From: Psammoneis japonica
Lineage: Eukaryota
Direction: 5' to 3'
Assembly (NCBI GenBank): GCA_008632985.1
Contig: QPGO01000019.1
Coordinates: forward strand, 682,001 to 746,000
DNA: 64,000 nucleotides
This document shows, piece by piece, positions 10,806 to 40,337 of this stretch. A program made the translations under genes and the position numbers. The stretch's first letter is position 1, and each line of letters opens with the position of its first letter. The notes beneath the pieces were generated by a model. It saw only the letters and a program-made list of their open reading frames with translations. It was not told the origin of the DNA and ran no database searches.

Positions 10806-11450
10806 AATTCAGAGAAAATGCCAGCACCTCATAGTCTACATCGGAACTCGTTACAAGACAGTGTACATACCTAAACAACAATCTTGTACGTGAGTGCCGC
10901 TACTTTGTAAAGTTAAAAATATAAAGCCACAAAAGTGGATCAGAAGCAACGACTCTAGAGTAGAGGCTCTCGTAAAGTGCTTAGACTAACTGCACTCTAC
11001 TAGCTAGATAGTCGAGTGGAGGTTGTTTCCAAAGAACCAATTCAGTTTCTGGTCTTTTCGATTGGCGGTCTGTAGTGGGTAAAATTGGAAAGTGTCTATC
11101 CATTTTGAACCCCGATCCAAGGTGTCGGCAGAACGCATCGTGAAAGAAAGCCCTTTTGTTGGTAGGGTGTGTACAGGCATGGACCACTCTAGAAACCGAG
11201 GATGATCCTCTTGTTGCTTAGAACGACAGCTCTCTGGTCCCTCTCTTCCGTGGAACGCGTGACAAGACACTGTACACACCTAATTAACATATGGCGATCT
11301 TGTAGAAAGTTTTATGAGTAATGCGGTTGAATTTAAAATAAATGGCCACAAAAGTGGATCAGAAGCAAAAACTCTAGAAACTAGAGAATAGGCTACCGTA
11401 TCGTAAAGTGGTCAGTCTAGCTACTCTAGAGAGCCGAGAGGAGGTGTTTT
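10584..11450 (+). repeat. Tandem duplication (about 450-bp unit) of the 3' end and downstream region of the membrane-protein gene; second copy degenerate
   Basis: 10584-11030 aligns with 11037-11450. Shared stretches include gtcggcagaacgcatcgtgaaagaaagcc and gccacaaaagtggatcagaagcaa. Confidence 0.9.
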
Positions 11451-11887
11451 CTACTCTCTAGCCGTTATCATCGTGAGGGTTTCAATCGTTTTCACTACTA
11501 GTGTGTTGTGTGAATGAAGTATGCTAAGGCACGAACAATTCCTTGCTACTTGCTACTGCCGATATTATGTAGCGGGTGTTGGGATTCTAGGTAGTGGCTC
11601 AATCCCTGTTGATCCACCACAGGTCCTCTCATCCTCTCAATGATTCCTTCCTTGATTATACTCTGTCGATCCAAATGACATTTTCTTTTATCCCTGTTGT
11701 GAAATCGACCCGAATTGGCTAAAAGCCTACCTTGTGCTCCTTCGCTTTAACACAGTACGAAGAATGTGACTCAATATATCTCAATAGATTACTCAAAAAA
11801 GGAATCTAACGTTTTCTTGACCACTTGACGTGTACAATCTATTCACCACTCAGATTACTCCAGAACCCGAGAAACAACTTCTTTTCG

Positions 11888-14800: not shown

Positions 14801-15258
14801 ATCTCGCTTTCCAAATAGGAAATGCCCGAATTGCCGAGCAAGTACAAGTATGCCAAACTTCCATTGTGAAGTCGCGTGGTTCGTAACAACGCTTTTGCGC
14901 CAATTATACCAATTTGGTTGTGTTGAAGATCAAGCTTTGTCAGTGTGGTGTTGGTGTCGAGTGCTATTGAGAGCACTTCTGCACCGGCGTCACCAATGCG
15001 GTTGTTGCCAAGATGGAGCCATGACAACGTAGTGTTTCTGAAAAGTGCCTCTGCGAGCAAATCTGCACCGTCGTCACCAACACGATTGTGTTGAAGATTG
15101 ATTCCTTTCAATGTGGTGTTTTTCTTTAGTGCATTTGCGAGCGCCTCAACATCCTTGTCATCGATTCCGCGGTAGCGAAGATCGAGCTCTCGCAATGTTG
15201 GATCATTTTGCGCAAGACGGCGGCAGGCTTCGAGGAGTGGGATCTTTGTTCCCAGCAT
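11888..15258 (-). CDS. LRR (RNI-like) + ankyrin repeats + coiled coil + unknown helical domain, about 1090 aa, 2 exons
   Basis: Exon 1 has LRRs (NTTLKGINLQHNRVGDDGA). Phase-1 GT-AG intron 14638-14738 joins it to an ORF with ankyrin repeats (GSTALYHAC, GKTPLMVAS). Confidence 0.85.
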
Positions 15259-15401
15259 GATTGAAAGTTATGTGCTCCTCTCGAGCATGAAAACCAAATC
15301 AAGCAGCGGACGGATGTAGAAAATAAAGTGTTCTCTGATGGCACAATGTCATGTGTTTTTTGTGAATGCGAATCCGCAATCTGGAATCCGCATCAGCTCC
15401 G

Positions 15402-15436
15402 AGTCGTGGATCGTCTGTCCAGCGATCCAGATTGTG
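15402..15436 (+). repeat. First 35 bp of a Copia LTR (probable disrupted 5' LTR of the element ending near 20.4k)
   Basis: agtcgtggatcgtctgtccagcgatccagattgtg matches 20138-20172 at 33/35. Both differences are CG versus CA. Confidence 0.75.
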
Positions 15437-15459
15437 GCAGGTCGTCAAATGGTGTGGGT

Positions 15460-15617
15460 TAGCGTACATAACGACGTTGCTGACGCAGACGGTCATCCTT
15501 TAAGTAAGTAGCCCTATGTACGCTATAAAGTTTATAGCGTACATAAAGAGCTGCTGACGTTATAGGGTCATTCTGCTTCTATGTACGCTACAAATCTCCC
15601 CTATGTACGCTATAAAG
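15460..15617. repeat. Cluster of five TATGTACGCTA motifs, including a perfect 15-bp-arm palindrome
   Basis: Copies at 15460 (rc), 15515, 15535 (rc), 15580 and 15602. 15515-15545 reads tatgtacgctataaa-g-tttatagcgtacata. Confidence 0.9.
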
Positions 15618-16377
15618 TGACATCCACAATTATGAAGAAAGACAGAAAGGTAATGGGTCAATTTTCAGTTTGGATTACCGACATACATCGATGAATATGT
15701 ATGCTTCGCAGGCACCACGCAACAAACTGCAGCACCACAATGATGCGTGCCGCCGGTGTCTCACTTTACGGCATGATGTCTCAATGACGCTTTCGCCGAT
15801 TTTCCTGTTTGTTTTTGATTTCTTAACAAAAATTGTGCAATTCATCTGAAAAGCTTGGCGCTGTGGCTTCTTGACTTTGCTCATGCCATCCTCACAAAAG
15901 CAAGCCTTTGTTTCCTTGCCCTGCTTCTGCTTTCTGCTGCTGCTCACCTTGGGCTTTGGCATGTGCTGGAGATCATTTCTGGCCACCTCAGATGCTGCAT
16001 GCCTGTGAACTTGTCTGTGCTTTTTGTCTTTTTCTTTTTGTTGTTGCTCTGGCTTCTTGCTGCTCCAACACACAGAGCACTGCTTTTTTGCTGCTGCTGC
16101 TGCTGCTTTTGTTCATGATCATCATGCTGGGGAGCTCCTTGCCAAAGCTGCAAAGAGATGATTTTCCAGATCTGCAACAAGCATCAAAGCAGCAGTTCTT
16201 TGTGAGGCAGCTCTCAACAACAACTGGGCCAAACCCCAAAGTGGTGCTGAGAACACTTTGCAGTTTGCAAGGTGTTGCTTGGTCATGGACAACATGCAGA
16301 GTTTCTCAGCTGGCTTGCTGTGGTGGCAATGAGCTCTTGCTGGGTTGTGCTGTGTAGAGAATCTCAGCTGCTTGTAC

Positions 16378-17060
16378 TTTTGGCACCCAAAGCCGTCTCA
16401 CCAGTTTCTCTTTTGGCATCTTGTTCATCCCTTCCACCTGTTTCTTCAAGATGCAGCATGCAGCAGGGCTCTCTGTGAGAGCTGGCATGTGGTGCCATCC
16501 TGGCTTCTTTTGCTTTGCCTCTTGCAGCCATCAGAGCTGTAGCTGGACACACTGGTTCTGCACAAACTCTCCTTGTCTGCACGCCACACTTTGTTTCACA
16601 CCAAAATGTGAGGCAAATCTCAACTGGCGCAGCTGTCACACACCCCAAAATGGCATTGAAAACACTTTGTGGGGTGCTGCTTGGCTGCGGACAACCTTCG
16701 GCCTTCTTGGCTGGGGCCAGCTGGGGGGCAGCAGCCAGCAGCTCTCTTGCTGCTGGGTCACAGCACAACACGCTGCAGAGCATCTCTCAACTGCTGCTTG
16801 CTTTTGGTGCCCAAAACAGTCTCACAATTTTCCCTTTTTGGCATTTTGTTCACCCCTTCCACCCAGTTCTTCAGTGCACAGCACACACCACTCTCCTCTC
16901 TGCACCCCGGCTCTTGCCCCTCTTCCTCTGGCTCTCTGTGCATCTTTTTTGCTTCTTGCTGCTTTGCCTTTTGTTGCAGCCACTGGTGCTGTGGCCAGAC
17001 ACTCTGTTTTGGCACAAGCTCCTTGTCTGCATGTTGCACTTTGCTTCAAATGTTGTTCCT
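16378..17060. repeat. Degenerate direct repeat (about 425-bp spacing) within a mutated unidentified element
   Basis: ttttggcacccaaagccgtctcacc...cccttccacc at about 16378 versus ttttggtgcccaaaacagtctcaca...cccttccacc at about 16802. Confidence 0.7.
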
Positions 17061-17216
17061 TGTCCTTTTGAGAGGAGATGCCTTTGGTGATGGGTGCTTG
17101 TGCAGAGTTGTTTGTTCTCCCCACTTTAACATCCGGAATGCTTTTGCGAGTTGACTCTCACTTCGCTCGAGTCGAGTCAATCAAAACCTGCTGCCCACAC
17201 CAGGTAAAAAAATGCC

Positions 17217-20200
17217 CCATGTTGGACCATGTTGTTGGAGCTCATGGCTCAACAGTGGTGGCGCCTTTACCTCGGCCAATTGCAATGCCCATCTTGAAGC
17301 ATTCAGTCAAGCAACAAAGTTTGCAGGCATTGGGGCCCACCACCACAACGGAACCATCACATGCACCCACATTTCGTGCTCCACCATGTTGCACACTGCT
17401 GTGCATTGGCCAGATGTCGCGGACGCTGCATTCTGGCCTTTCACTGTGAATCATGCCGTTGCCTTGCACAATGCAGTGCCTGATCCCTCTGCTGGTTTGA
17501 GCCCCAGGATGTCTTTACAAAGACTTGTCAACCGCACTCTTGGTTCAAAGACTGTCATGTTTGGGGTTGTCCAATTTGTGCTCTTGACAAGAAAAGCACT
17601 GATGGAAAGAAACTGCCGAGGTGGCAATCCCACGCCAGCCGCCACATCTACATGGGACTCAGTGCACAGCATGCCTCCCTGGTCACATTGGCGCTGAGCC
17701 TTGACTGAGGCATCACCCCACAATTTCATGTTGTTTTCGATGACTGGTTCCCTGCTGCTGCCGGATTGGACCAAGATGCTTTGCCAGCCTTGGATGTTCC
17801 AGAATGGCAGTCTCCATTTAGAGACAGCATCTTCCAATGTGGCATGGACAAGGATGACAACATGGAGGCCAATGCTGGACAAGAACATGATGAATGTCAA
17901 CGCTGACTGCACAAATTTCGAACCACCACTGAGTCACAACTGCCTCCAGCTCCGCTGAACGTGGCTCCTCCAGCTGTCCAGACCCCAGATCCCCTGCCTG
18001 CATCTCCCTTGACTCCTCCAGTTGACGTTCTGTCCCCAGAAAAGCAACCACTTGCTCCACAAGAGTCTCCCACTGGTCCTGCCATTCCAGACTTGCCTCA
18101 GAGGGAGATGACCCAGCCGTCGCCACCAAGTGTTGCTGCTGCTCCTCAATGGGAACCTCCAACACCCCAAAATTTGTCTTCTGAGCTAAGTCAAGAGAGG
18201 GAGCCTGCCCCAGCACCTCAACAGAGGGAGTCAACTCCTCCTGCTGCCTCCATCAGGTGCTCCACTTGCACTTGAGCTCCACCCAAGTGCCATGGATGTG
18301 ATGGCTCCCAAGGATGTGGCTGCTCAGCTCATTTTGCTGATCTCCTTCATGCCTGCGAGCTGAACCATGGATGTCCTGTCACTGTGATCACTCCCTTGGT
18401 GCATGAGGCATTGCAAGAGCAAAGACCCAGACACTCTGTCATGGGACAAAGCCATGCGCTCCACAGATTGCAACAAATGGTTGGAAACAGCAGAAGTGGA
18501 GATCACCACCCTTGTCAAGCTGGGTGCTTGGACTGAAGTGCCAATGTCTGATGCAAAGTCAAGGACACTCCCTGGTGCCTGGGTGTTCCATCGCAAATGG
18601 TCTCCATCTGGAGAGATCAAGAAATGCAAGGCTCTCTGCTGTTGTCGTGGAGACTTGCAAGATGGTGTCTTTGACACCTGTGCTCTGGTCACAGCTTGGA
18701 GTGCCATCCGATTGTTCCTTGCATTCATTCTGATCATGGGCTGGATCACTGCATTGGCAGATTTCCAGCCCGCATTTGTTCAAGCTGCTCTTCCAAAGGA
18801 TGAGCCGGTTTGGATCCACTCACCTTGGGGATGTGGGTCTTCTCTTGTGTCTGAAGCTCAACAAGAGTCTGTGCAGACTCTCCTCTGCTCCAAAATTGTG
18901 GTGTGAACACTGCCTTCAAGCCTTCTTGGATCTCAGATTCATCCAAAGCAAATTTGATCCTTGTCTCCTGCTCCATCATGACTGCATGGTCTGCCTGCAT
19001 GTCAACGATTGCAGAATCAGCACAGCACATGAATCTGCCATTGATCAGGTCATCAAGGGACTTTGCAAGAAAGGATTTGGATTGACCAAGGAAGGCAGTT
19101 TCGCTGAGTTCTTGGGTGTCAAGTTTGAGAAGTTGGGAAATGGTGCCATCAAACTGTCGCAGTCTGGGCTGATTGACAAGATCCTCATTGCCACCGGCAC
19201 ACAGGATTGCAAGCCTGACATTTTGACTGTGGCGACCCAAGCTCTTCGCAGTGATCCTGATGGTGAACCCATGGATGAGGCTTGGAGCTGCCCCTCCATT
19301 GTTGGCATGCTCTTGCATCTGTCCACCAATGCTTGTCCTGACATTGCTTTGGCTGTGAGCCAAGTTGCGCGCTTCAATTCAGCTCCCAAGCAGTCTCATG
19401 CCACTGCCATCAAGACCCTCATCTGCTGCCTCAAAAAACTTGTGCCGGCAGCATGTTCTTGACTCCAACGGGCACTTTGGATCTTGACTTGTTGGTGGAC
19501 GCCAATTTCGCTGGTCTCTTCCATCAGGAGCTGGACTCTGATCCGAGTTTGGTCCGATCTTGTGCTGGACACCTTTGTCACCCTCAACACGTGCCCTCTG
19601 GTCTTGAAATCTCAACTCCAGATGGCTTTGTCCTGCTCCACCCTTGAAGCCAAGCACCAAGCCGCCTCCCATGCCCTGAGGACCCTCCCACCCTTGAGGA
19701 GGATCCTGCAGGAAATTGTGTCAATGCTCAACCCTCACCGTGACCTGTTGACTTCGATTTGTGCACGCATGTTTGAGGACAACCAAGGTGCCTTCTTCCT
19801 TGCAACCAATCATCATGTTGCCAACCGCACTGAGCATTTTCTGGTCAAGTGACATTGGTTCTGGTCCCATGGCCACAAGTTTGTTGTCATCAAGGTTGAG
19901 GTGGTGGATCAGCTCACGGATTTTCTCACCAAGCCTTTGACAAGAGAGCTCTTCCTTGCCAACAGAAAGAAGGTTCAGGGTTGGTGAATTGTTGGGACAT
20001 TTGTTTGTTTGTTGCATGTTGTGGCTCTGTCAAGAAGATGCGGGAGTGTTGCTCTGAACTTGTGCTAGTTGTGTGAACATTGGCTCGTCTTTGATGATTT
20101 TGGTTTCTTGATGATCAAATCTGCAAATGAGAGGGAGAGTCGTGGATCATCTGTCCAGCAATCCAGATTGTGTCTGTCTGTCTGCATGTCCTTGTGGAAT

Positions 20201-20440
20201 CTTCCCGCCACGTTGGACCACATTGTTGGAGCTTGTGGCTCAATGATGGTTGTGTGCTGTGAGCATTGCAAGGCCCAACTTGGTTCTTGTAAGAGCAGGA
20301 TTGATTGTTGAGAACTTGATGACTTCTCAGGTGTGCCAGATGGCATGGATTCCCATGCAGTGAGTTGTCTGGTCGCACTCACCAGATTTTGGTCTAGACA
20401 GCTCACACTTTAGTCAGTTGTGTTTCCGTGAAAGGCTTTT
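17217..20440 (+). mobile_element. Degenerate, internally deleted Ty1/Copia retrotransposon (IN C-terminus, RT, RNase H, PPT, 3' LTR from 20138)
   Basis: Motifs DPDTLSWDKAM, LPGAWVF, CRGDLQ, HVND (= YVDD, codon 18998-19000), SIVGMLLHLS and FEDNQGA. PPT GAGAGGGAG precedes AGTC at 20138. 17217-17259 matches LTR sequence at about 20208-20250. The right end is approximate. Confidence 0.9.
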
Positions 20441-20573
20441 GACTGAATGCCGATTGCTGCTTCACAGCACTGGGCCATTGCTCACTCTTTGGTCTGAGGT
20501 GTCATCTTGGAGTGGACATCCAAGTGATGTGTTGGAAGACCCGCAAAGCGCGCACGCACACGAGCCTTGACTC

Positions 20574-20720
20574 TCTGCCTGCTCCCTTTGCGCTGCCAGG
20601 CCCTCCTGTGCATGAATGTTGACACTGCCCAACATCATTTGCCTCATTGGACACTGGCGCTGAGGTGAAATGCTCTGCCACCTTCACATCCAAACCAAAT
20701 CTGTCATGCAAAATTTGTCC
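20574..20720 (+). pseudogene. Tyrosine recombinase C-terminal relic (DIRS/Ngaro-type retroelement)
   Basis: Reads SACSLCA...ALLCMNVD...IICLIGHWR*GEMLCHLHIQ. This fits the YR pattern SARSLRA...GRWRSDEMLRYLH after reverting CG and TA mutations. The putative catalytic Tyr is now CAC (20679-20681). Confidence 0.65.
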
Positions 20721-21733
20721 TCCCGAACGTTTTCTAGAGTGGCTCTTGCACTCTCCTCCCCAATCATGAAGTCCCACTCCATTGAACGCATCCTTCCCCC
20801 ACTTTGCTCCTGCCCAATGTCGATGGCCCAGCCACCTGCTGCTCCACTGAAGTGGTCCAGGAGCTGGCACGTGGAGCCAGTTCCTGGTGAGTGGGGCAAA
20901 TGGACCTCTGTCACCATCCAACCATGATGGCACTGGAGCCAGCTGCACTGTTTGAAGTGGCAGCAGCCACTGCAGAATGGGGGGGGAAGATGATGCAAGG
21001 AGGAGGGAGGCTGTTGATCAGCTCAAGTCTCTCCCTGCCACAGACAGACAATCCATGATCCTGCCCACACCAGAGACTGCTCAATGCACACAACAGCAAT
21101 TGAGACATTGCAGTTGTTCTTTGTTGTTGTTGCAACAACACCCTCAGACAGTTCCAGGCAAAGACTTGGAGGATTGGAACAGGATCTTTGAGCTCTTGCA
21201 GGGCAGAAGGATCCAAGGAGTGGGCACCGCAGAGCAGGACCCAGGTGAGCCAGTGGCTCAATTGGCTGGGCCTGCTGGCAACTCTGCCAGGATTCATCCC
21301 ATGCCCCCCATGTCAGTTGAGGGTGCAGGTCTCTTTGTGGACAACAACTGCATGGTTGTCAGGGCTCATCTCCCATGGCCTCCATTTTTGGTGGGGTGCA
21401 GCCGGTGGTTGTGTTTGCAGTTGGTTGGGCCTGCAGCATCAGAGTGCACGAAATGTTAAAAATGTGTAGATTTGCATGATGACAATTTGTCAAAACATTG
21501 CAAAACATCATTGTCACACAATGAAAGGCCAACCTCTGGTTGCAAGTTTGCCATGCCAATGTTGCAATGACTTGTTGAGAATTGTGCATGCCATTTTTCA
21601 CTGTGTCCACATCACTGCATCTGCCTCCACCTTGTTGCCACATGCCAATGTGTGATTGCATTTCCACACAATCCTTGGTTTGTTGATTTTCGCAAACATT
21701 GTGTTAAACGAGAAGAGCATTTCATTGGTTGGG

Positions 21734-23002
21734 TCAATCCCTTGTTACATCTGCAGTGCAATGACCAAGTGCTGTGTAAACTGTGTGCACATTTTCTTGC
21801 TGCAACTCTCTTAAACTAAGCTGACGATCATCATCGGACTCATCTCCATCGGACTCGTTTCCTCCGTCGTCCGTTTTGCCTTTTGTGCCTTCCTCCTGCT
21901 CATCGTCGTCACTGTTGTCGTCCCTGCTGCTCTCCGCCATTGGGCTGTTCATTGCCTTCACCTTGTCTGTGTCACCAGTCGGTGCTTTGTTTTTCTTCTT
22001 TTTTGCTTCTCCGGACTCTTGCACTTGCTTTTCTTGATCTCCGCATGCCACTTTTCAAACTCCTTGCCCTCCTTGGAGTCTCTGTCTTTCGTCACCTCTT
22101 CACACAAATCGTTGAACCGATTGATTCCATCGTCTCCCCAAGACACTCGTTGTTTCTTTGGCTTCGTGTGCCAAGGGGCAGGCCTTGTTTCTTCGGGCTC
22201 CATTTCCTCACCCAATTCTTCCACCGCCTCCTCCTTGTTCCTGTGTGCCCACACCTGCCAACAATTCTCCATGGCCAATGGCGCCAAAGCTTTGTCACCG
22301 ACCGCAAACAACTGTGAGACCTGTGCGTTCCCAGTTTTGACGGTGCTGCTCCATGCCTGCTTTTGCTTGGTTTGAGGCAGGATGTGATCACAGAACCACT
22401 TGCATGCCTGCTTGTTCCTTTGTTTACCGCCGGTGATGGTGTCCAGGCCAAACGGATCCCATGTTGGCACAAACGGGACATCATTCTCTTCATTCTTGTC
22501 ACGGCTTGACTCATTCCTCTTTTTCCTCCTGTCTGCCACCTTGAGTTTCTTTTCTTTTTCCTTTCCCTCTTCCTTGGTGACAACGCCCACATGGACAAAG
22601 CATCACCGTCATCTTCTTGTGAGATGCACGCAACTCTCGAATCACACACATTGGTCACTTGGCCGAACACACCGTGTTTCTGTGATTGTTGATTTGCCTT
22701 TTTGCCGCCTTTTTTGCCCATTCCTCCCAAGTTCCTGACCAATTTGAAGTGTCCATGTTGCCACCAGCAATCTGTTTCTTGACAAACATTGAGACGCTCC
22801 CATTGCTTGCCAATTCTGACGGACTGAGAAACTTCACCTGTGGAAAGAGATCATTTCTGGCCACCTTCTCTGCTTCTGATTTCAATGCACCATGCGCTGC
22901 CTGCGTGCCTGTTCTCTTCAACACTGCCTGAAGTCTTGGGCTCATTGGCTTGACAGTCTCATTTTTCTTTCTCTTCTTTGCCGGTTGTGCTGGAGACGAC
23001 AT
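21734..23002 (-). pseudogene. Transposon accessory ORF relic
   Basis: Disrupted frames 22655-23002, 21958-22590 and 21734-22051 (LFPQVKFL; DKALAPLAMENCWQVW; WGDDGINRFNDLC). Divergent from the transposase and essentially Tyr-free. Confidence 0.6.
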
Positions 23003-23455
23003 CTTGATCTTTTCACGGCAACAATGAGAGGAGTGGCACTGTTCGACAGTGCAACCGTTGTTTGGGTCGTGTTGAGACAGCCAGGCACTCTATTTTCTCT
23101 GTGACATTGCACAAACCATTGTCAGCAACATTGAAATTTGAAAACATGTTTGCACATGACAACGAACAGTCCAACTTGCTTTTTGATGTGGCTGTCATTG
23201 CGTTTCAACGGAGACAATGTCCTGCATTTTGACAGCAAATAAAAAGTGCAACATTCACTGTGGATGCCAGATAAAAAATCAAAGTGCAGATGCGTCACAC
23301 CTGTGAGAATCATCTCAATCTGGAAGACAATGTAATGTTTGCCAATTTCCCGCCATTTTTTGCGTGTTGTTCTTTTTTTCCCTTCTCATCCACAAGACAA
23401 GGAGACGACGAGCATGAGTCTTGATGAAGGCCCTGTCAACATTGTCTGATTTACA

Positions 23456-26400
23456 ATGGACAGAAACCCTCTTCTCTGTCCCGGTTGTGGCCAAAGTTTT
23501 TTGCGAACAGCCTGCCATTGGAGACACTTGCTGACGTGTTGCTCAGTTGCCCAAGAGTTGCAAACCCAAGATCCAATCCCAGATCAAAGCGACATTCCTG
23601 CCACAACAGAGGGGCCACCCGAAGAAAGTGGCAGCTCTTCCTCTTCGTCCTCTGATGATGACGAATCCCATCCGAGGTGATCAACTTGCAGCAGATTCCC
23701 AAGATCTTCAATGAGTGATCCGAGCAGCAGCCCCTTGTTCCCCTCCCCGGATGATGCGCTGCACGGAATGGACGACATGTCCTCTGTTTCATCAAACCAC
23801 AGCATGCAAGGAGTTGAGCTTTTGGCAATGAACGATTTGGATGTTGGTGGTGGTCAATCCTTTGCTGCAGTGTTGGACGTGACAATGGAGGAGGAAGAGG
23901 ACATTGACGATGAGGATCAACGTTTGGGGATCAGGTGTGATGCTCCTGCAGAAGAGGCCTTGGCTTCTGCTCCCTCTTTGACAAATCTTGACGGAGCTTG
24001 CGCAGAGTTGTGCAAGAAGCTCATGGACACACGTGGTGCTCCCCTGGAATTGCACGACTGCATTGTTGATTTCATTGAGAGGCACACTGGCAACAGCAAC
24101 ATTGAGCTTGGCACAGTTCTGCCAAGGAGAAAAGAGTTGATGTGTGCCTCAACCAAGCATTTCCCTCTTCCACCCAGTGAGTCTGTTCCTGTCACTCTAG
24201 AAACCAAAAATTTCAAAACCGGTTTGCCAAAACGAGTGTCAGTGCCAAGATGGGATTTCACAAAGGTTTGGGAACAGTTTTTGCTTGATCCTCACCTGTG
24301 GTGCAGCAGAGAGAATGTGGCCAATCCAGACAATCCTTTTGGGAAGCACAAAGCGAAGGGACCAGATGACAAGTGCCTTTTGGCGGGTGAGTGGCTCAGG
24401 CGCAGTTACAAAGAACGGATGACTGACCCGGAGAAACAATTTCTCGAGTGCAATGTCATTTACCTTGACAAGACTGGCAGGACACAAGGGATGGGATCAC
24501 ACTGCGGAGAACCAGTGATCATGACCTCTGCGCATGTTGCCTTCAACAAATGGTCGGACAAGAGTGTCTGGAAACCAATTGGTCATCTCCCGGATTTGGA
24601 AAAGATGTCGTCATCTGCGGCAAAGAATCTCTCAAACAATCACAAGGCAGAGAAGGGACGCTCGTCAAGAGACTGCCACACTTGCTTGCATGTTGTTTTG
24701 GAGCCACTTTTGGAAGTCATGAGAAAAGGAGGCATGAAAACACATGTGCGACGAGGGGATGAGATGCAACACCTCCACATGATCCCACTGATCGCTCTCA
24801 TCACAGGAGATGCAAAAAGCGGCGACTGTCTCGTCAGACGATGCGGAGGTCACAACTGTCGTCAATGTTGCTGTCGTTTTTGCCCAACTGGCTTCAACAA
24901 ACTGGACGACCCACATGGATTGAATGCGAGTTCATCCGAGGACTGGATCTCCACCAAGTGCAAACTAAGGCCAATGACGACAACAGATCAGACCAAGAAA
25001 GGAAGCACTGGTTGGGCATCTTGCATTGACTCAAGCAACACAACGCACCCACCAACTGTCTTTTTGAGGCAGACTTTGGCGCACAACCATGCGGCGTTGC
25101 CCTTGCGACAGCAAGCGACATGATGCATCTCTTTGAAAACAGCACCTTGAAAAGGGCAATCAATTCATTTGTAGACAGCATGACACCTGTGGTCGCAAGT
25201 GAGGTGGACAGCACAGTGGAAAGGATTTTCAGCAATCACCGGTCAACTTGCAAAGCATCCTTTTTGTGAACAAACTTCAAAGGAGGAGCAACATCGCTTG
25301 CCTTCCTCAACTCTCACCACTGGGCTGGAATGACTTTTGTTTTCTACCTTCTCCTGTCAACCAGCGAGGGACGAAACGCATGTGAGTCATGCTTCCTTGA
25401 TGAGGACGCAGACGAACCCCATTGTTCCAGAGAATTGCAAGATGCCCAAAGTGAACTTTGAGAGTCACTGCCAACCTAGTGAGTGCTTGGACGACTCTGA
25501 CGATGAAAGGTCGGAGGAGTCCGAAGAGGGTGACTGGGATGAAAATGAGGATGAGAAAGAGGAGAGTGAGGCTGAGGATGGTGACGACAACCAAAAAAAG
25601 AAAACATGCAAGGGAAAAAGACTCAACTGCAGCATCCGGCAATTCATTCAATTGCTTGAGGACCTTCTTGTCTTCCACGCATGGTGCAGGCCAGGCGATC
25701 CACCCATCACAAGCGTGACTCCCAGTTCATCTGTTCAGAAAACAAACAAGAAAATCCGTCTCCTCATTGACGGGATGGTGCAATTCGTCCCGCAAACAGA
25801 AGGATGCGGGTGGAAGCTTCAAAAGCTTCATGAAACACTCCATCTCCCAGTGTTTCTTCATTGTTGCCGACATGCGATGAACTTTGATGCAGGCTTGGGG
25901 GAGTGTCTCTTGAAAGACTTTTTCAAGCTGCTGTCATCTGCCGCACAACAACGCAACCTCGACAGTTTTCTGAAGCAGGTCGTGTCGCGCATGGAGGACC
26001 AAATGAGGCTCAATGCCGCAATTTCAGCCAACAGTTGGATTTTGCCAACTGGGAAAAAGGAATCATCAAGAGTCAGGATGGACAATCACACACTGGGAGG
26101 AAGTGCGTTCACTCTCACCTACAACCGAGGGATCAGCGCTGTGACGTTTGAGTGGAACAGTGAGCATGCTCGTTGCCAAGTTCATCCTGTGTTGGCAAAC
26201 TTCATGTCGGAAAAGTGGGAGGATTGTGTTGGTGAAGACAGTGAAAACACACACCTGACTTGCAAGACAGAGTTTTACAATGCAAACGGGAGGGATGCAC
26301 CCCGATTTCAAAAGCAAAGGACCATGGTGTGACTTTGCCTGTGTGACCTTTGGCACACGAAAGGGCGATCAACAGTTTCCCTCCTGTTTGCCATGTTTCT

Positions 26401-26718
26401 TCAAACAGGAAGACACAGGATCAATTTTTGCAGTTGTCCATCCAACTGCTTGTCAAGCTGACCAGAGAACTGTGAGGCAACGGCATCAGCACGCAGACTT
26501 GGTCAGTCGCTGGCAGCTTGATCACAAATGAAACAACTGGCTTTCAACGCCTGAGAAGACTCAGCACTCACCTGAGTTACGTGTTGTCCCTGTCAAAGCA
26601 ATTGGGGACAATGTTTTGGTTTATGAAGAATGTCCAGGAGCAGCAGAAGCACAAGAAAAGGCCCCATTTGTTTGGGCTGCACAGGACAGAAGGAAGTGTT
26701 GGTCAGATTTGTTTCTAA
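23456..26718 (+). pseudogene. Plavaka-like transposase, mutated and frameshifted
   Basis: Motifs VIYLDKT, WKPIGHLP, RDCHTCL, ITGDAKSGD, MMHLFE, WKLQKLHE, NFDAGLGE and HPDFKSKGPWCDF. The family is assigned from recalled motif pattern, not from a search. Confidence 0.7.
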
Positions 26719-26745
26719 AATAGGATGCGCGCATCAATCTGTCAT

Positions 26746-27710
26746 TCACTCACAGTGTGTGCATTTTTGGAGCAATTGCTTCCTCATGGGTTCTATGCAG
26801 TGTCCACTCACACGGTCCATTTGGTCATCCTGCACCATGAAATGTTCCCTGGCAGCCACAATCGCCTGCTGAAAGTCGGCTCTGTGGTCAGGCTGGTTGA
26901 CAGCCACCAATTGTGCCTTGATTTGCAATGCCAACTGCAGGACCCTTTCTCTTGCCACGGCTTCTTCGTCCACAGCCCGGATCGCGGTCCATGTCCCTCC
27001 CCGCATTTGATCTGTGCCTGGCCTCAGATCATACAAAGCTTGCCACTGTCGCTGCAAGGCAACGTCTTTCCTTCTCAAATCGTTGCAGCCTTCAGGATGC
27101 GCAGCAGCTGAGATAGATGTTGCCTTCAAAGGAGTGGCACGGCATGGCGGTGGATGGATTTGTTGATGCTGTTAATCGCAGATTGCTCCCTCTCCACTGC
27201 TCTGTTGGCATCTGTGTCAGAATTTGCCCCGAGGCTTCTCAGAAGCAACGTTGAGTCACAGCTGTGCAGCATGTGCAGCCTCAATTCTGATTTTTGATGT
27301 CCCGCAACAGAGATTGGGAGCCCCAATTCTTTTGCGTCAAATGCGTCACCGTGAAGAAAGCATTGGAAACTCATTTCCGCTTTGCTGCAATTTTCCACTG
27401 CAACAACACAGTCGTTGTCTGAACAGTGTGTCTCGATTGATGACTTGATCAACTGTGCATGGATGTGCTTAAATTCGCGAGTGGTTGTTGCTGGATTTAA
27501 CAAAGCACTGTCAAGTGCGGTCGTTGCAGCCACAGCGGCACAACGGGCTTCTGCCATTGCTTCTGCCGATCTTGACACAGCAGCCTTTGCATCCTTTGCT
27601 CTCTGTTCCTCTGAACAATGAGCAGCATCAGCGTGAACAAAACCATCAACTGTCCCCATCATCCGGCGACGGAAATCCTCAGCAGTGGACAGACGGAGTT
27701 CATCTGACAT
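26746..27710 (-). pseudogene. Second accessory ORF relic (helical, Ala-rich) inside the TIR element
   Basis: Overlapping ORFs 27126-27710 and 26746-27129 with protein-like composition and few Tyr. Confidence 0.45.
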
Positions 27711-30700
27711 GGTTTTCTTCTAATGCTCTGATTGTTGTGGTCGTGGGTCTGCCATTGCATTCACCAGATTGGTCGTGCGTCAGTCACAAAATTCTGGTTT
27801 CTGTGGAAACACACCAGAGTGGTGTGTGGGAGAAGTTGCATGCGCACCTGGTGGGATTTGGAGTTTTACACACAAAAACCTGCCAGACGCATGTGTGACT
27901 TCTCCCAGAGAAATCCTGCATGAGATCATGCCGGGAAAGGGCAATGCGGAGTGTAGAATTGACAGAAGAAAATGTTGTGCAGAACAGCATCAGGAGAAAG
28001 GGTGCATGCACTGGAAAACAACATGGATTTCTACATGCGCGTTAAGGCACGTGAAGAACACGTGGGTGCCTTCAAGTGACGCATGCAAACAATCACAAAG
28101 AAACATTCGGAAATGGGGACAGCACAGAGAGAAGTCAGAAGTGTGGATCCAAAACAAAGTGACACACGATGAAGGCAACGGCAACGGGATCGATGAAAAA
28201 GAAGGATTCGGACGGAAAGACGCCGGAGACGGTGAAAACAGGCGGCGCCAAGACAAAGAAGGAAGAGAAAAACAGGACGGGAAAAATGAAGAACGAGAAA
28301 AAGAAGCAGACGACACGACGTCAAGAGGGGAGCAGCGACACGACTCTGCGTTTCGAGGGACCTCTTCCTCTCGATGAAGAAATGCAGTGTGGCTTTTTTG
28401 GAACGGTGACAAGGAAACATCCAACGCGGCAGCGGCACACACATTTGAAATTCTTGCAAGAGAGCGGACAAGACATGTGGAATGAAGAGGACGATGTGGA
28501 CGAACAGGCCAATTGGAGCACAGTTGTTGACCAAATAATTGGTGCACACTTTACATGATGAAAATTTCATTGCATGTGATTGCAATGTTTGGCTTGTCGT
28601 TAAAGATCGTTGGCAGTTGTGAAAAAGGCTGAGCACAAAAGTTGAAAAGCATCTATGTTCAAACATGAAGAACAGCAGGAGATTGGCAATTGACTGAACA
28701 ACAAAAACCATCATGTGTGGACAAGTAGATTTTGTGATGTGGCAACACATTTTTGTCATGTGTGCAGACATTACGACATCGTGCACTCTGATGAGATGAT
28801 GCTGCAAGGGTTCATCCCATGGCCTTTACATTGGTCAGGGGTGCAGCTCACTTGCTGCAGTTGCCCTTGAATGGCAGAACCTCATGCTTGGTTCCTTGTC
28901 CCGCTTTCTTTTCTTGGGTTGGGCCCAGAGCTTGATTTCTTTCATTTTGGGGTGTGCATCCTCTCTGCCCTTCCACCTGGCATTCCAACCACATTTCCCA
29001 ATGTGTCTGGTCTGCCAATGTCTTTGTCACTCCCCTCCACTGTGGCATTGGCTCTGAGTCAAGTTCTGGTTCCTGTGCATCTCATTTCATCTGCATCACA
29101 TCCTTCTGATTCTTCTGCACTGTTGCCCCTGCTGCCCCCACAACTGGCATCAACCAACAAGTGGCAACCGGTCCAAGTCTGTGCCTGAATCTTCCACAGC
29201 AGCTGCCCCCCCCCCCCAAGACTCAAGACTTGTGCCTTTGTTCCCAAAGCAGTGCCCAGAAAATGAAGAGGACTTGAGAATGTTGGCATGGTTTGTGAGA
29301 AACCCAAAGACACTCACTTGAAGAGTGCCTCAAAATTGTGCAATCTGGGGAAGGCAAGTCTTGAGCAATGATGGAGTGCCCTTTGTCACATGCTCACTTT
29401 GCATTGCCAGGTCTTGATGTTGGTTGGGCTTCCATTTGCATTGGCAGGAGGCACTGTTGCTGCATGATGGCTCACTGAAAAATGGAAAAGTCCATTGCCT
29501 CTTTCCATTGCACACTGGCACTGCCCTTGGTTTTGAAGCACACTTGCCCAACAGAAACCACAGCAATGATTGTCTCCATGTTGTCAATGTTGGTCATCCT
29601 GTTCTTCATCATTTGGATTTCAAGGCTCTTTCCAAGAAAGCTGGCAAAACACCCACCAACAATGTGGTTGAGTTGGGTGGCATGTGTTTGGCATTTTGGT
29701 GGCATTTTTTGTCTTGCTCACAGTGGTTCATCCACATTCTTGTTTTGTCTTGTGGGGGCTGTTGTTCAATTGACCTTCAGCATTGGCTGGCATGCAGCCC
29801 TTGTTGTGCAGAAGGTTTCCAAACTTTGTGCAGACATTTGACTGCAATGGTGGTTTGGCAAGAACACCCAAACAAAATCATTTCAGCATCCAAAGTGCTC
29901 ACAAAATGACAGATTTGTTCCTTTGCCGGGTCTGAATGTCATGACTGGTGTGCAGCAATGACTGGCATTGATTTGCTTTTGTTCTCCAAAACCAGCAATC
30001 TGGTTAGATGGAGTTGGTGCAGCAGTTTTTTGTCATTGTGGCACTGTGCTAATTTCCCTTGATCTTGCACAAGCTGTGTGGGTGTTTGCAAAAAAAAAAA
30101 AAACAACGGGCTTCACCATGTGTCAAAAGAAAGACAGCAACAACAAACACTGAGACTTGTTCATCGCAGTGAGAAAAACTTTGTCAGAGTTGCAGAGATG
30201 GAGACTTTTTGTGTGGTTTTGACACAAAACAGATGACAACACAGCTGATGATGCACACATTGCACAGTGCACTTGTGTGTGTTCATGCCAAATGAGAGCC
30301 AAGAAATGACACAGCATTTGCCCTCATTTCTTTTCACTGCACTTGTCAATGATGAAGCAGAGAGAGGTTGAATTGTTCCATTCCCAGGTGATGCACAAAA
30401 CAACACTTCCTTTTGAGCACAATTTGCACAACAAGCTCTGTGTGTTCAGTCTGTTTGTCAAACACACTTGCACACTCTGCCTTTTGCATTTGATGAGAGT
30501 GTGAACATTTAAACATTTTTTTTCATTGGCGCTCAAATCTTCGTGGGGTGTTTCTGCAGAAACAACGCCAACTCTGTGCCAGCACTCACATTGTGGAGAC
30601 TTTTGTGCAAGCACACTGCTGCCACAAAATGCACACAGAAATGTTTTGTGTCAACCTCCAAACAGCAATGGCACATGAATCTTTTGTTGGTGTTTGTCAC

Positions 30701-32925
30701 AAAGAAAAAACATTGATTGTGCAAAACAATGACATTCTTGCAACCCTGACACAAGTCTTGTCAGTGTTGCAAAACATTGAAATTTGGGTGAATCTGCACT
30801 TTCAGTGGTTCTGAGCAGCTTGCCCCCAGCAAACAAATCTGATGCACTGTGGTGCAACACACAACCAATGGGTGAACATGTTGCAAGGCCACAGCTTGTG
30901 CCAGGGCCAAGGACACTGATGGAGGAGGAGAATGGCAAAAGTTCTGATGGTGAGAGGGGCACCCTTGTGCCTTGTGTTTTGCTTTGTTGAAGCTGGGCTT
31001 GCTGCGGTGAGATGCAAGGACCCCCAGCAATGAAGTGTGGGCATGTTGGCAAACCAAAAGGCAGGGATGCTGCAAATTGCTTTTGGCTTTTGGACATCAT
31101 TTTTTTGCAACAGCTTGCAGACAAGAAACGGCATTCCTGCACCCTCATTCCAGCAGATGAGAGTGAGAAAAAATTGAGTGCAATGTGAGCACATTGAAAT
31201 GTTCTGAGGAGGCGCCGAGCTGCAGTGATTTCAAGAATGAGAGCACACACAGCTGCAAATGACAGCCAAGGACAGACTGGGATGCTTCATTGGAATGATG
31301 CCAAAATGCCACCCAGAAACAGCAGCAGCAGGCACTGCACTTGGGGGTGCAGAAAACTGTGCTTTCTTCAAAAGGAATTCAATGATGCCATTGCTGCTCA
31401 TCTGAACGATGACATGGCAAAATCACTTGCACCGTGCACACCACTTGCAACCACCCAAGTTTGCAAGTTTGCGTGCAAGGCATGTGTGAGCACAAGCTCG
31501 CTCACAAATTCTTGATTGAAGACAGTGGGGAGGCCAAGAGAATGGACCAAGAGTGCATTGAATGCATTGCCAAGCTTGTGAAGGCTCGTCACAGCACAAA
31601 ATCTCAGCACCAAATCCATGCAGAAATCATGCAGAAAAATGCGGCCAATTTTTCATCACTCCCCAATGAAGAAAAGGTGAAAGCGGTGTTCATGTTCAAA
31701 ATTGGATGTTCACAAAGGTGAAACCACGATGAACTCAACTGTCTGTGGACCCTCCTTGTCTAGAAACAGCCAGAAAAGCTCAAATTTGAACTTCTGGATG
31801 GCCCCAAAACTCAAAAATGGCATTTCTGGACATTTCTGGACAAAGATCTGCAGAAAGATAAAAAAACATTGTGATTTAGTTGGTGAAATGTGCTCAGATT
31901 TTGGAGCTGCTGACCATTTTTGAACCCCAAACAAGACATGGCAGTTGAAGCAGTTTTGCGAGCAACACAGAGCATCTGGACTTTGGTTGCACAACTGCAC
32001 ATTTGCTCAAATGAAAAGCGGGTGCTCGTGGGGTTCCTGCACCTCAACAGCTGTTGTTTGCGTGACTGTCTGTCTCACTTCAACTTCAGTTGAACAAAAA
32101 CTGTTGGTGAGTTTCGCTTGCCTTGTGCACTTTGTTTTGTGTCAAGATGCTGCAGTTCACCAAGCCCCCTTTTTTAGAATTGCTGGGGCACTGCATTGAC
32201 AATTTGCAAGAGTGTCAAAATTGTTTGGGGCACTTTTCAAGAAGCAGCCAGAGGAAAAAGTTGGAAATGCCCAGATCAACCACGGCTCTCATGCAAAGCA
32301 AACCACACAGCTCTCATCCTTTTTTGTCAGGCCAATGTGTCCTGGATGACTGGGCCAGCTGTGCCATGTGTTGCCCACCCCCTCCAAGAATGGCTGATGT
32401 TTTGTCAATGGCAGCTCTCCATCCCGCACAACAAGCAAGCACTTGCACCATCAGCACGTGCAGCAAGCTGGCTTTTTTTGTTGGTGCTCTGCCAATCTGT
32501 GCTGCTTTTTGGTGCAGGAAAAGAAAGTTGCCAGCACCATGCAAACACGACCCCCTGGAGGGAGTCCCAGAGGGGGGGGGGTGGCGCAGCATGCAGGAGA
32601 TTGCTCCAACTCTCTGTTGTTGCTGGCAACAGCTTCTCATGCAGCGGCACTGTGTGCTGCAAGAGCAGCTGGACACCATGATCTGCCCATTGTCTTTTGA
32701 GTCACTGTTCCATGAGAGTCTCAAGCAGAATCATTGCATCAACTTGAGACCATGCTCTGCACCTCAAATCTCACTGTGTTGCCAGATGACGCTCGGGGTT
32801 GGACCGCACACAACGACGAAGCTCTCGAGAGTCCTGGAGAGTCTTCAGCAGCCAAACAATTCAAAAATGACACAATCCCAAAGAGCTTGCTTTCGGGGCA
32901 TGTGAATGTACATGGCAACCTCTGT

Positions 32926-33005
32926 GGGCCCTCTCTCTAGAGAGAGAGAGCCACTAGCTAGCTAGAGAGCAGCTCTGCTAGCTACTGCTAGACTAGCTAG
33001 AGAGC
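32926..33005. repeat. CTAG/GAGA-rich palindromic low-complexity patch at the right edge of block A
   Basis: Palindrome ctctctctagagagag (32931-32946) followed by repeated ctag/gctagc. Confidence 0.8.
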
Positions 33006-33478
33006 TGATGACAGCACAGAGCAGGGCTCGCGATTTTGCGAAGGTCGGAAGTGGAAAAGAACCCGGAAACCTGGATTAGATAGGTGTAAAAGGAATGTGG
33101 AATTAAAATATGAATGACATGTTCCTTTTTTCAACACTTTCTGCGAAGTGAAATCTGAAAATGTAGCAATCAAGATTCCGCCATTTTTCGTGTCGTTGCG
33201 ATCCTCTCGTGTCAACGCCACGCATCACTTACCGGTATCACTTCCAAGCAGAGCAAAATCACAGGCACATCAGGACAACAAACAAACAACACCTGCCGTA
33301 TTTATTATAAGCTACTTTTGAGTGGAAAGAATAATTTCAATCTGCGGTTAGAGAGTGCGAGACGCTGGAGACAGCCGCTGATAAGAGTCTGTTTTATCAC
33401 ACAAGCGCACGAAAAAATTCAGGCGCGAGCAGGCGGCTGCACAGTGGAGGTTAACTACTTTTGTATCAGACTTATACA

Positions 33479-34085
33479 ATGTGGAATCAATCAGCAATAC
33501 AATCGGTTCTTATATGCATAGTACTTTGCTTCTGTGGTACTATAACAGATGGCTTGCTGTGTCAGAAATCTTCGGTAGCATTTCGACCATACACAACACA
33601 ACATCGACAACAAACGGCATTAAGCATGGTGGCAAAAAGCGGTGGAAAAATCATTGCGACAAGCGAAGACTTTACAGAATTGGTGTTATCGACAGAACTT
33701 TCCCGTCCCGTCATGGTTTTCTTTTCGGCACCATGGTGCGTGAAAAAACAAAATTGAAAATGAATGAAAACCATAAGCTGTGCTCACCTTTTGTTGTTGT
33801 TTTTCTCATTTTAGGTGCGGACCCTGCCGACTGAGCGTTCCAGTGATTCGAGAGATTATGAAACAATTTTCAGGTCAAATCGATGTAGTCGAGGTATGCA
33901 CAGATGACTTGCCCGATATAGCGGCGGAAGCCGGTGTGGTGAGTATTCCCACTATCCAAATGTATTATAGAACCGAGCTGCTGGATACCATTGTGGGTTG
34001 TGTGGCAAGAAACGTACTAGCCAGTGCGGTTGAAAAAGTGCTGGAAGATACATTGGGAACTACACCCAATGGGAGTTCACCGTGA
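33479..34085 (+). CDS. Thioredoxin, probably plastid-targeted, 2 exons
   Basis: Intron 33736-33814 splits the Trp codon and restores WCGPC. Also VVSIPTI and an N-terminal signal/transit-like extension. Confidence 0.92.
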
Positions 34086-37879: not shown

Positions 37880-38030
37880 CTGCACTCTAGGGCTACTCTC
37901 TAGCTCTAGAGCAGCTAGCTAGCTACAGCAGTAGAGGGCCCTCTACTAGAGCAGAGAGTAGCTACTAGCAGGAGCAGCTAGCAGCTTAGCAGCGGCAGTG
38001 GTCAACTCTCTAGAGAGTGGCTCTAGAGCA
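37880..38030. repeat. CTAG-rich palindromic low-complexity patch at the left edge of block B
   Basis: 18-bp palindrome agtagagggccctctact (37930-37947) among many ctag/agct units. Confidence 0.8.
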
Positions 38031-38286
38031 TGCAGACAGGCACCACGAATTGTTTTCAGTGCTGAGTTCAACAGCTCAAAATCCCTTCAATTCGAAAAAG
38101 AGATGCCAAGGGCCCACATTGAAGATTTGGTTCACAATGGCCAAAGAGAGAAACACATCAACAAAAGAGATCAACCATGGGAAAAAAACCTGCTGCACAA
38201 CCAAGCCAAGGGCAAGCTGCACAAATGTTCCTGCTTGGCCGCAAGGTGGAAGCCTGGTGCACAGAAAGGCACACAGTCTTGGGACA

Positions 38287-39330: not shown

Positions 39331-39596
39331 TCCTGCAACCCCTCTCTGTGACCATTGGTGCACCTCAGGACAAAGTGCACATGGAGAGGGGGCTGTGTTG
39401 ATTGTGCATGTCTGGGCACTGCTGTGCTTTCCTGTGTGGGGTGCCAACACCAAACAAGCATTGCAATGACTGCATGTCATCCTGCAACCTCTCTCAGTGA
39501 CTGTTGCACCTGGAGACAAAGTGCCCATGGAGAGGGGCCATGTTGACCGTGCTTGTCTGAGCGCTGTTGTGCACTTTCCTGTGTGGGGTGCCAGAG
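39320..39596. repeat. Two degenerate direct copies, about 148-bp period
   Basis: catcctgcaacc...gacaaagtgc.catggagagggg...tttcctgtgtggggtgcca occurs at about 39320-39447 and about 39468-39593. Confidence 0.8.
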
Positions 39597-40082: not shown

Positions 40083-40316
40083 AGTCGAGATGCAGTCCTG
40101 CAGCTGAGCAGGATGGATGAGACCTCGGAGGTTGGCAGCAATGTGAACAGCGACAGAGGCAAACAGACGCTTGTTGAAAGTCGTTGTCTGGAAATTGTGA
40201 CGAATGTCGTTGCTTCTGTTTGAATCGATTTTGTGATGAGCCAATCATTTCGAAGAGAAAATCTGAGTCTGGGTTGCAGTCGTGAGATGCGACCAGAATG
40301 ACGTTGAGTCGTGACT
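40083..40316 (-). repeat. 3' LTR (234 bp), zero TpA
   Basis: Gapless match to 47091-47324 except at 12 dinucleotide sites. Confidence 0.97.
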
Positions 40317-40337
40317 CTCCCTCTCAACCGAGAGAGC

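Follow-up and report, generated by a model that had tools for sequence, protein, structure and literature searches.

The locus and the extent of TpA loss

The analysis concerns 64,000 nucleotides of Psammoneis japonica DNA (assembly GCA_008632985.1, contig QPGO01000019.1, positions 682,001 to 746,000 of the forward strand), here called the window, and in particular a nest of dead mobile elements within it from which the dinucleotide TA (TpA) has been almost completely lost. DNA in this state is called 'erased' below, and all positions are those of the window. Three other blocks are as strongly erased as the nest: one containing a pseudogene of a local Arm-repeat/MYND-finger (Arm/MYND) gene family and two of no recognised family. 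The window also contains four normal members of that family and a younger Copia retrotransposon (Table 1). The named best matches of a subtilase gene and of Copia are all from diatoms (Skeletonema, Proboscia and Fragilaria), at 42-55% identity.

Table 1. Features of the window (o/e, observed/expected ratio; LTR, long terminal repeat; ORF, open reading frame; aa, amino acids)
Feature	Position	Strand	Basis and remarks
TA-erased nest of dead mobile elements, 17.2 kb	15701-32900		TG+CA o/e 1.5-2.0; CG o/e 0.0-0.77 per 400 bp, with a single bin at 1.21
Old Copia pol relic (C-terminal part of integrase, reverse transcriptase, RNase H)	17239-19984	+	Pfam RVT_2; tblastn with the diatom Copia polyproteins P0001, P0002 and P0008
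Sub-block with milder CpG decay	21700-28827 (limits approximate)		CG o/e profile, mostly 0.34-0.77
Plavaka/KDZ-like DNA transposase relic, almost full length	23924-26717	+	tblastn, residues 197-1151 of the 1154-aa relative P0122
TA-free run, also nearly CpG-free	28828-30004		Dinucleotide counts
CTAG-rich palindromic cluster, not erased	32937-32997		Right border of nest
CTAG-rich cluster, not erased	37887-38023		Left border of erased pseudogene block
Erased pseudogene block	38025-40082		Alignment with paralogue; colinear with normal Arm/MYND gene region 48828-50333
Young Copia	40083-47324	-	RVT_2, 109.8 bits; full polyprotein match; target-site duplication GGATT at 40078-40082 and 47325-47329
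3' LTR of young Copia	40083-40316	-	LTR alignment; 0 TA, 13 CG
5' LTR of young Copia	47091-47324	-	LTR alignment; 10 TA, 13 CG; adjoins AIG1-like ORF 47316-48449
Arm/MYND gene	49774-50793	-	Local family
Arm/MYND gene	51675-53084	-	Local family
Erased block, no recognised family	53260-56547 (left limit approximate)		Holds a 2011-bp TA-free run; 0 Pfam matches
Arm/MYND gene	58666-60003	+	Local family
Erased block, no recognised family	61646-62906		Dinucleotide counts
Arm/MYND gene	63334-63999	+	Local family

Dinucleotides were counted per kb and in 300-bp steps along the window. The nest (17,200 bp) contains 68 TA where its base composition predicts 1109 (o/e 0.061); at the o/e of its own flanks, 0.562, there would be 623 (Poisson P about 1e-177). 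Per kb, the ratio lies between 0.00 and 0.18 within the nest and between 0.34 and 0.77 in the gene-bearing DNA outside. The change is abrupt. Dense TA ends at 15700 and resumes at 32909, and the borders of erased blocks can be resolved to within tens of bp. When all erased blocks are pooled, TA o/e is 0.050 (76 TA in 23.8 kb) compared with 0.562 (1314 in 33.0 kb) for the rest of the window, while the young Copia, at 0.237, is intermediate. TG and CA are raised jointly in the erased blocks (o/e 1.73 and 1.71 versus 1.19 and 1.20), CG is reduced there to 0.335 (0.993 in the rest of the window and 0.958 in the young Copia), and the GC content is about 0.49.

These figures agree with the initial annotation, made by eye from the letters, which had described TA as nearly absent over 15700-32900 and normal in the neighbouring genes. 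Base composition, whose control had been set beforehand as a test of that description, does not account for the depletion, which persists at 0.05 versus 0.56. The same annotation had found no TA at 28830-30003. This is correct (the nearest TAs are at 28827 and 30005), although longer TA-free runs exist: 18187-20066 (1879 bp), another of 1784 bp and 54537-56548 (2011 bp).

Two classes of element can be recognised in the nest, both of them named in the initial annotation. The older Copia was mapped using relatives, about 50% identical, of the young Copia polyprotein (those with a species name come from Fragilaria crotonensis). Only pol is recognised, with a Pfam RVT_2 match at 18388-19459, and the catalytic YVDD motif now reads HVND (18998). 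For the Plavaka-like ORF, 519 homologues reach E<=0.001 (best 9e-62). Its score against the Pfam Plavaka model, 24.0 bits at 23681-25120, is under the 26.3 cut-off, and a search for terminal inverted repeats of the element gave only weak pairs of 25-29 nucleotides. On either side of the sub-block of milder CpG decay, CG o/e is 0.0-0.4, with TA gone throughout. The sub-block is probably a younger Plavaka-type insert within older DNA, and the unequal CpG decay among sub-blocks agrees with real nesting of insertions that differ in age. A 52-nucleotide direct repeat, 71% identical, occurs at 21284-21335 and 28802-28853.

A third element proposed for the nest, a tyrosine-recombinase relic, is not supported. 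The motifs listed in the initial annotation are all present (HVND at 18998, MLLHLS at 19307, CHLH at 20676 and GPWCD at 26319), but nothing beyond the four letters CHLH points to such an enzyme. There is no sign of a DIRS or Crypton relic: the short ORF carrying them gives no Pfam match at E<=5, ORFs of at least 90 aa in that part of the nest give none at E<=0.01, and the translation around CHLH includes no domain-like stretch. About half of the nest matches no known element class, and 11 ORFs taken from unrecognised erased DNA yielded nothing credible in Pfam at E<=5. The nest also includes a tandem duplication (16411-17048, unit about 430-450 bp), whose copies differ largely by transitions, including TG/CA swaps.

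Timing, direction and strand of the changes

The young element has the structure of a Copia retrotransposon: an RVT_2 domain with the integrase upstream, LTRs of 234 bp and a 5-bp target-site duplication. Since this duplication, GGATT, is intact, the LTRs started out as identical copies when the element integrated. Today 14 alignment columns, at 12 sites, distinguish them, all of the TA versus TG/CA type. Ten sites have TA in the 5' LTR and either TG (3) or CA (7) in the 3' LTR. At the other two, TG in one LTR is matched by CA in the other, and the simplest origin is a TA in the ancestor that changed in different ways in the two copies. None of the 220 remaining columns differs and all 13 CpGs are common to both copies. 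The changes therefore arose in the chromosome, after insertion, and the LTR pair is a record of a TpA-restricted chromosomal process that is far faster than CpG decay or background mutation.

This pattern bears directly on explanations without a dedicated mutator. GC-biased gene conversion, or ordinary decay in unrepaired heterochromatin, would share the net direction from A:T to G:C, and the domains do hold repeats. We nevertheless consider it very improbable: all 12 differing LTR sites are at TpA, no other A or T position has changed, and overall GC stays at about 0.49 because CpG loss offsets the gain. An origin in ultraviolet TA photoproducts is set aside, as these would not yield sharp domain borders or pure transitions.

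Erasure is uneven along the young Copia. It has reached all 12 TA sites in the 3' LTR and 31 of the 36 conserved tyrosine (Tyr) codons inside the element but only 2 of the 12 sites in the 5' LTR. In the orientation of the element, the two changed sites are at about positions 198 and 225 of 234 (manual reading of the alignment); all eight sites between 39 and 180 are intact, as are two at about 207 and 216. The spared portion is the promoter side of the 5' LTR, which also abuts the AIG1-like ORF. The limit could be set by the transcribed unit or by a chromatin border near an active gene, two possibilities between which one element cannot discriminate.

The direction of change was obtained from three polarised tests (conserved Tyr codons, TA across codon boundaries and the pseudogene), and all three agree on TA to TG or CA. 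A Tyr column was taken as conserved if Tyr is present in at least 60-70% of the relatives. The young Copia has 36 such columns, now Cys in 15 and His in 11 with Tyr kept in 5; the old Copia has 21 (Cys 5, His 6, Tyr 0) and the Plavaka-like relic 7 (Cys 3, His 0, Tyr 1). A separate alignment-based count over the 1306-aa ORF of the young Copia gave 26 Tyr columns (Cys 11, His 5, Tyr 3). Most other types of conserved residue in this element are kept in about 76-98% of columns. Those kept less often are Ile (15 of 29, with 10 now Val), Thr (21 of 30) and Met (10 of 14), as loss of TA across codons predicts. At the first codon position, a T stands before the A in 11 of 15 A>G changes in the old Copia and 11 of 18 in the young one (22 of 33 combined), compared with 1 of 41 and 11 of 109 unchanged codons starting with A.

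The pseudogene provides the third test. It is a dead fifth Arm/MYND copy (38220-40037) and differs from its normal paralogue at 149 of 588 aligned columns. TA has become TG seven times and CA six times, with no change in the reverse direction. CG has become TG or CA 16 times, with 2 reverse changes; the remaining differences are 32 TG/CA-swap columns, 46 other transitions and 40 transversions.

Polarity decides against two further explanations. The elements might have been poor in TA from the start, because they are foreign DNA with a composition of their own or because selection acts against TA. A low TA content is known from some viruses and genomes and is also seen in the young Copia, whose frame is open. 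However, the Tyr content of the relatives is normal (2.95% for Copia and 3.60% for the Plavaka-like proteins, versus 0.61% and 0.42% here), conserved residues have been destroyed, two LTRs of one pair keep 10 and 0 TA, and unrelated element classes and a host pseudogene are affected alike. We give this idea very little credence. The second explanation reverses the polarity: a cytosine mutator resembling repeat-induced point mutation (RIP) would have converted CpA/TpG to TpA in the unerased copies, making the TA-poor state ancestral. RIP is a known repeat-targeted mutator acting at CpA, and the LTR differences alone cannot be polarised. Such a history is nonetheless barely conceivable, as it conflicts with the Tyr codons conserved among relatives that are Cys or His here, with YVDD having become HVND and with near-zero TA exactly in the dead elements, where TG/CA is in excess. 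In addition, the two LTR sites with TG in one copy and CA in the other need a TA ancestor.

Both strands have been hit, since Tyr>Cys and Tyr>His are nearly equal in number (15 versus 11 in the young Copia). The nest as a whole contains 1862 TG and 1708 CA, evenly distributed along its length (heterogeneity chi2, p=0.49). Strand-coordinated runs of TG-type or CA-type outcomes were looked for and none was found in the nest (same test), the pseudogene block (p=0.29) or the young Copia (p=0.39); block 53260-56547 gives a weak value (p=0.026), no stronger than in unerased background (p=0.0056 and p=0.054).

These data can be set against editing of element RNA by an ADAR-like adenosine-to-inosine deaminase, with reverse transcription making the edits permanent before the element integrated. 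The targets do include retroelements, and ADAR enzymes are known to change A to G preferentially where a U precedes it on the 5' side, as also noted in a recent preprint (Mettrop et al., 2026, bioRxiv 10.64898/2026.01.13.699255). Editing of the sense transcript predicts Tyr>Cys only, whereas Tyr>His is common (11 versus 15 Tyr>Cys in the young Copia and 6 versus 5 in the old). Moreover, LTRs that were once identical now differ only at TpA, and a DNA transposase relic and a pseudogene have been erased. The LTR pair, the erased transposase, the erased pseudogene and the action on both strands thus rule out, for practical purposes, RNA editing copied by reverse transcription. The initial annotation had also rejected RNA editing, and had concluded that the process acts on chromosomal DNA and is host-driven, from the DNA transposon being hit as hard as the retroelements; the lines given here, together with the persistence of the depletion after control for base composition, support the same view and are stronger than that argument. 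Depletion is not confined to one class of element: the targets are Copia and Plavaka-like elements and one host-gene pseudogene, so that retrotransposon, DNA transposon and pseudogene are hit alike.

Public reads provided a check on the sequence. A contig from run X1 (depth 60.5) spans the single-copy erased block 38000-40112 with three differing letters, which argues against an assembly or base-calling artefact. Modified bases do give systematic miscalls on some platforms, and in methylated repeats such miscalls might replace both TA and CG by TG/CA, as observed here. This possibility is nevertheless extremely slight: the X1 contigs are a separate set, the young Copia has lost TA but not CG, and proteins from other public assemblies show the same replacement of Tyr by Cys or His. 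The three differing letters (39190, 39968 and 39988, two of them at CpG/TpG sites) may be allelic or strain differences. Two other runs, X2 and X3, contain next to nothing of the window.

The Copia family is highly repeated in run X1, where 2927 contigs at least 85% alike could be placed on the young element; added together, they reach 60-190 times the depth of the neighbouring single-copy block, a figure that is not a copy number. Transitions make up 281 of the 329 listed places at which these copies differ from the one in the window (A>G 71, T>C 76, C>T 69 and G>A 65, with 48 transversions). Context was read for 30 events from the best-supported 40 of 330 differing rows. Eight are adjacent TG/CA swaps and eight are sites with TG/CA here and CG in other copies. 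Three have TA here and TG/CA elsewhere, three TG here and TA elsewhere, and two CG here and TG elsewhere; six are other single changes. These differences fit independent erasure of different copies. None of the best 40 of 330 rows falls in an LTR.

A similar pattern occurs in a few public relatives. Three of 150 Plavaka-like proteins have 0.09% Tyr or less and one of 120 Copia relatives has 0.33%. These Tyr-free transposase and Copia-polyprotein relatives (P0214, P0231, P0255 and P0106) come from public metagenome assemblies. Conserved Tyr columns are His 7 and Cys 0 in P0214, Cys 7 and His 0 in P0231, and His 4 and Cys 3 in P0255, while four intact control proteins keep Tyr in 7-11 of 9-11 conserved columns. 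The outcomes in P0214 and P0231 are one-sided, contrasting with the even mixture of Cys and His in the window, a hint that single erasure events may be strand-biased. A single-protein scan of metagenome contigs for the DNA encoding the Tyr-free relatives matched 21 stretches, none of which was confirmed.

A candidate mutator and its relation to known systems

The changes occur after integration, are confined to TpA and outpace all other substitutions, including CpG decay. It is likely that they are the work of a targeted mutator acting on chromosomal DNA in sharply bounded domains and converting TpA to TpG or CpA on both strands, almost to completion. Such a mutator would act in bounded domains holding mobile elements and one dead gene copy and would make A:T to G:C transitions at TpA, on either strand, until almost no TA is left. 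The agent would be a host enzyme, most simply a candidate DNA-acting adenine deaminase producing inosine, which is read as G. A relationship of this candidate to the tRNA A34 deaminases would be plausible; in their natural substrate, the A that is attacked follows a U. Genome defence is the role that the process would have here; to our knowledge, there is as yet no firmly established case of a natural enzyme serving that purpose by deaminating adenine in chromosomal DNA.

Targeting would probably follow silent chromatin or the transcribed unit of an element rather than sequence repetition. The four normal Arm/MYND paralogues share 67-77% DNA identity and are unerased, with erased blocks lying between them, while the dead fifth copy is erased. 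Erasure thus seems not to be simply repeat-induced.

Surviving TAs in the erased blocks were compared with TAs in the unerased background according to their flanks (R, purine; Y, pyrimidine). RTAY is found at 0.16 per kb in erased DNA and 11.7 per kb in background, a survival of 1.4%. Survival rises to 7.7% for RTAR (0.81 versus 10.5 per kb), 9.8% for YTAY (1.13 versus 11.5) and 24% for YTAR (1.62 versus 6.77). The survivors number 4 RTAY, 48 RTAR+YTAY and 40 YTAR, where equal survival would give 26.6, 50.0 and 15.4 (chi2 58.7, p=2e-13). YTGY gains most in the erased blocks (+15.3 per kb), followed by RCAR (+8.9 per kb); each of the other six TG/CA classes gains 5-8.5. These figures are most simply described by a rule in which T-A-pyrimidine is converted to T-G-pyrimidine on any strand that has this context (purine-T-A to purine-C-A on the opposite strand), and such a preference would have RTAY erased most and YTAR least. 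Informative LTR outcomes agree with the rule by 8 to 2 (manual count). Tyr codons after a pyrimidine have become Cys in 14 cases and His in 5, and those after a purine Cys in 9 and His in 12 (Fisher p=0.06).

The same targeted process could instead use thymine-side chemistry, in which the T is modified (for example, to 5-hydroxymethyluracil by an enzyme of the TET/JBP type) or is excised and misrepaired, giving T>C. Because TA is palindromic, the LTR and Tyr data fit T>C equally well, and the flank rule can equally be written as purine-T-A to purine-C-A. In dinoflagellates 5-hydroxymethyluracil preferentially replaces T at TpA, and this base is weakly mutagenic when paired with A. We think this version unlikely, though worth keeping in mind; the only paper found on the signature favours adenine deamination, without testing it (Mettrop et al., 2026).

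Several points weigh against the reading of a targeted adenine mutator or limit its reach. Enzyme, base modification and chromatin state are conjectured from sequence, and A>G cannot be distinguished from T>C in a palindromic dinucleotide. Only one element provides the LTR evidence. The window may have been assembled from the very sample behind run X1, which would then not be biologically independent. TG/CA swaps between copies could descend from an ancestral CpG; this is unlikely only in the LTR pair, because there none of the 13 CpGs is singly changed. The flank rule partly uses unerased background as a proxy for ancestral sequence, some surviving TAs may be newly arisen, and both polarised flank tests (the LTR outcomes and the Tyr codons) are only borderline. 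Finally, 86 of the 149 differences in the pseudogene are neither TpA nor CpG, so the old blocks also carry ordinary divergence.

The closest known system is in Bigelowiella natans, in which integrated giant-virus and virophage DNA undergoes hypermutation restricted to TpA (Mettrop et al., 2026). According to that preprint, 231 of 302 nuclear single-nucleotide mutations in mutation-accumulation lines fell in two integrated viral regions, the effect being seen in only some of the lines. Nearly all of these were A>G or T>C, and these GC-biased changes were all on TpA. The rate was about 6e-7 per site per generation, some 1000-fold over background. Low-TpA genes were enriched in reverse transcriptase and DDE domains, and the authors favour a defence role and propose an ADAT2-like DNA adenine deaminase (Mettrop et al., 2026). 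The words 'diatom', 'flank', 'context' and 'trinucleotide' do not occur in its main text.

The likeness to the process in the window is close: TpA only, to TpG or CpA on either strand, in confined regions and in selfish or foreign DNA. The target there is single copy, unlike RIP with its need for duplication. The B. natans host is rhizarian and its viral integrations are partly depleted (Rho TpA 0.45), whereas here the named best matches are to diatoms, the targets are transposons and a pseudogene, and o/e is 0.05. The LTR pair and the flank evidence are additions made here. Searches of the literature on TpA hypermutation, RIP and transposable elements in diatoms found no diatom report, and those on DNA adenine deaminases as a transposon defence returned mainly base-editor and genome-editing work. 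With the window, a mutator first described in 2026 in another lineage has a second example, which is independent of the first and more extreme.

Other defence systems share part of the signature. Fungal RIP is likewise a host process that makes one dinucleotide-specific transition in mobile DNA and leaves sharply bounded, skewed blocks. It converts C to T at CpA, however, raising TpA and AT, whereas here TpA is destroyed and A:T becomes G:C; the composition of the erased blocks (TA o/e 0.050, GC 0.49, polarity TA>TG/CA) is not that of RIP. RIP also needs duplicated sequence. Copia is repeated here, yet the four Arm/MYND paralogues (67-77% identical) are unerased. CpG decay does change CG to TG/CA in the old blocks, but it leaves the loss of TpA unexplained and lags far behind it, with the young Copia at 0.958 for CG and 0.237 for TA. 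APOBEC and AID also act against mobile elements by enzymatic deamination of DNA, and in AID-driven somatic hypermutation the two strands of transcribed DNA are both mutated from a point downstream of the promoter onwards, which the spared 5' LTR would fit. Both enzymes convert C to U, and APOBEC acts on minus-strand cDNA before integration; the changes here are at A:T pairs and follow integration. The APOBEC and ADAR models therefore fail on base, strand or timing.

A broader reading, which we put forward tentatively and hold to be possible rather than probable, is that an enzymatic genome defence of considerable age is common to diatoms and chlorarachniophytes. Mobile DNA that is silenced or aberrantly transcribed would be attacked by a DNA adenine deaminase, which may have branched off from the tRNA A34 deaminase ADAT2/3. 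In a few generations this enzyme would remove TpA from both strands, RTAY being its best substrate, and would kill the element without stop codons. Its reach would be set by transcription-unit or chromatin borders, which would explain both the spared promoter side of the 5' LTR and the CTAG-rich clusters on two of the borders. The saturated signature in transposons of a diatom-like stramenopile suggests that the system is widespread among these algae and old. Young LTR pairs that differ only at TpA are a natural experiment for measuring its rate and targeting, and the finding brings the problem to a group of organisms that can be manipulated genetically, so that knock-outs of candidate deaminases become feasible.

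Reading frames, CpG decay and border motifs

CpG has also been lost to TG/CA from the older blocks, by a process that is separate from the loss of TpA and slower. Its signature is their low CG o/e (0.335) together with the excess of CG>TG/CA changes in the pseudogene (16 forward, 2 reverse). It is presumably due to deamination of 5-methylcytosine in methylated transposons, the standard explanation for CpG loss in such DNA.

Changing TA to TG or CA creates no stop codon and removes TAA and TAG, so that dead elements retain long frames in all six frames. Counted on both strands, stops in the erased blocks are TGA 1081, TAA 63 and TAG 46, compared with 1157, 543 and 616 in background. This effect explains the crowding of 73 ORFs of at least 100 aa within 15000-33500, as well as the persistence of the 1306-aa ORF in the young Copia despite the loss of 31 of 36 conserved Tyr. 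The four stops that bound or interrupt the frame of that element are all TGA (40923-40925, 44844-44846, 45693-45695 and 46989-46991, minus strand). There is a consequence for annotation: erased elements combine very long ORFs in all six frames with a lack of tyrosine and with domain scores under the cut-offs. Gene-prediction software may report them as genes, and repeat-detection software may overlook them.

Two kinds of motif lie at the borders of erased DNA. Directly outside the left border of the nest, at 15515-15625, are three to four copies of a motif close to CTATGTACGCTATAAAG. They are rich in TAs of the RTAY type, every one intact, which shows how abruptly erasure stops. CTAG-rich, partly palindromic clusters occur at only three places in the window, the two listed in Table 1 and a third at 11374-11498, and include CTCTCTCTAGAGAGAGAG and GCTAGCTAGC, with GGGCCCTCT in common. 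The two border clusters bracket a normal island containing a SET-domain gene. These clusters could be border elements or merely a common intergenic motif.

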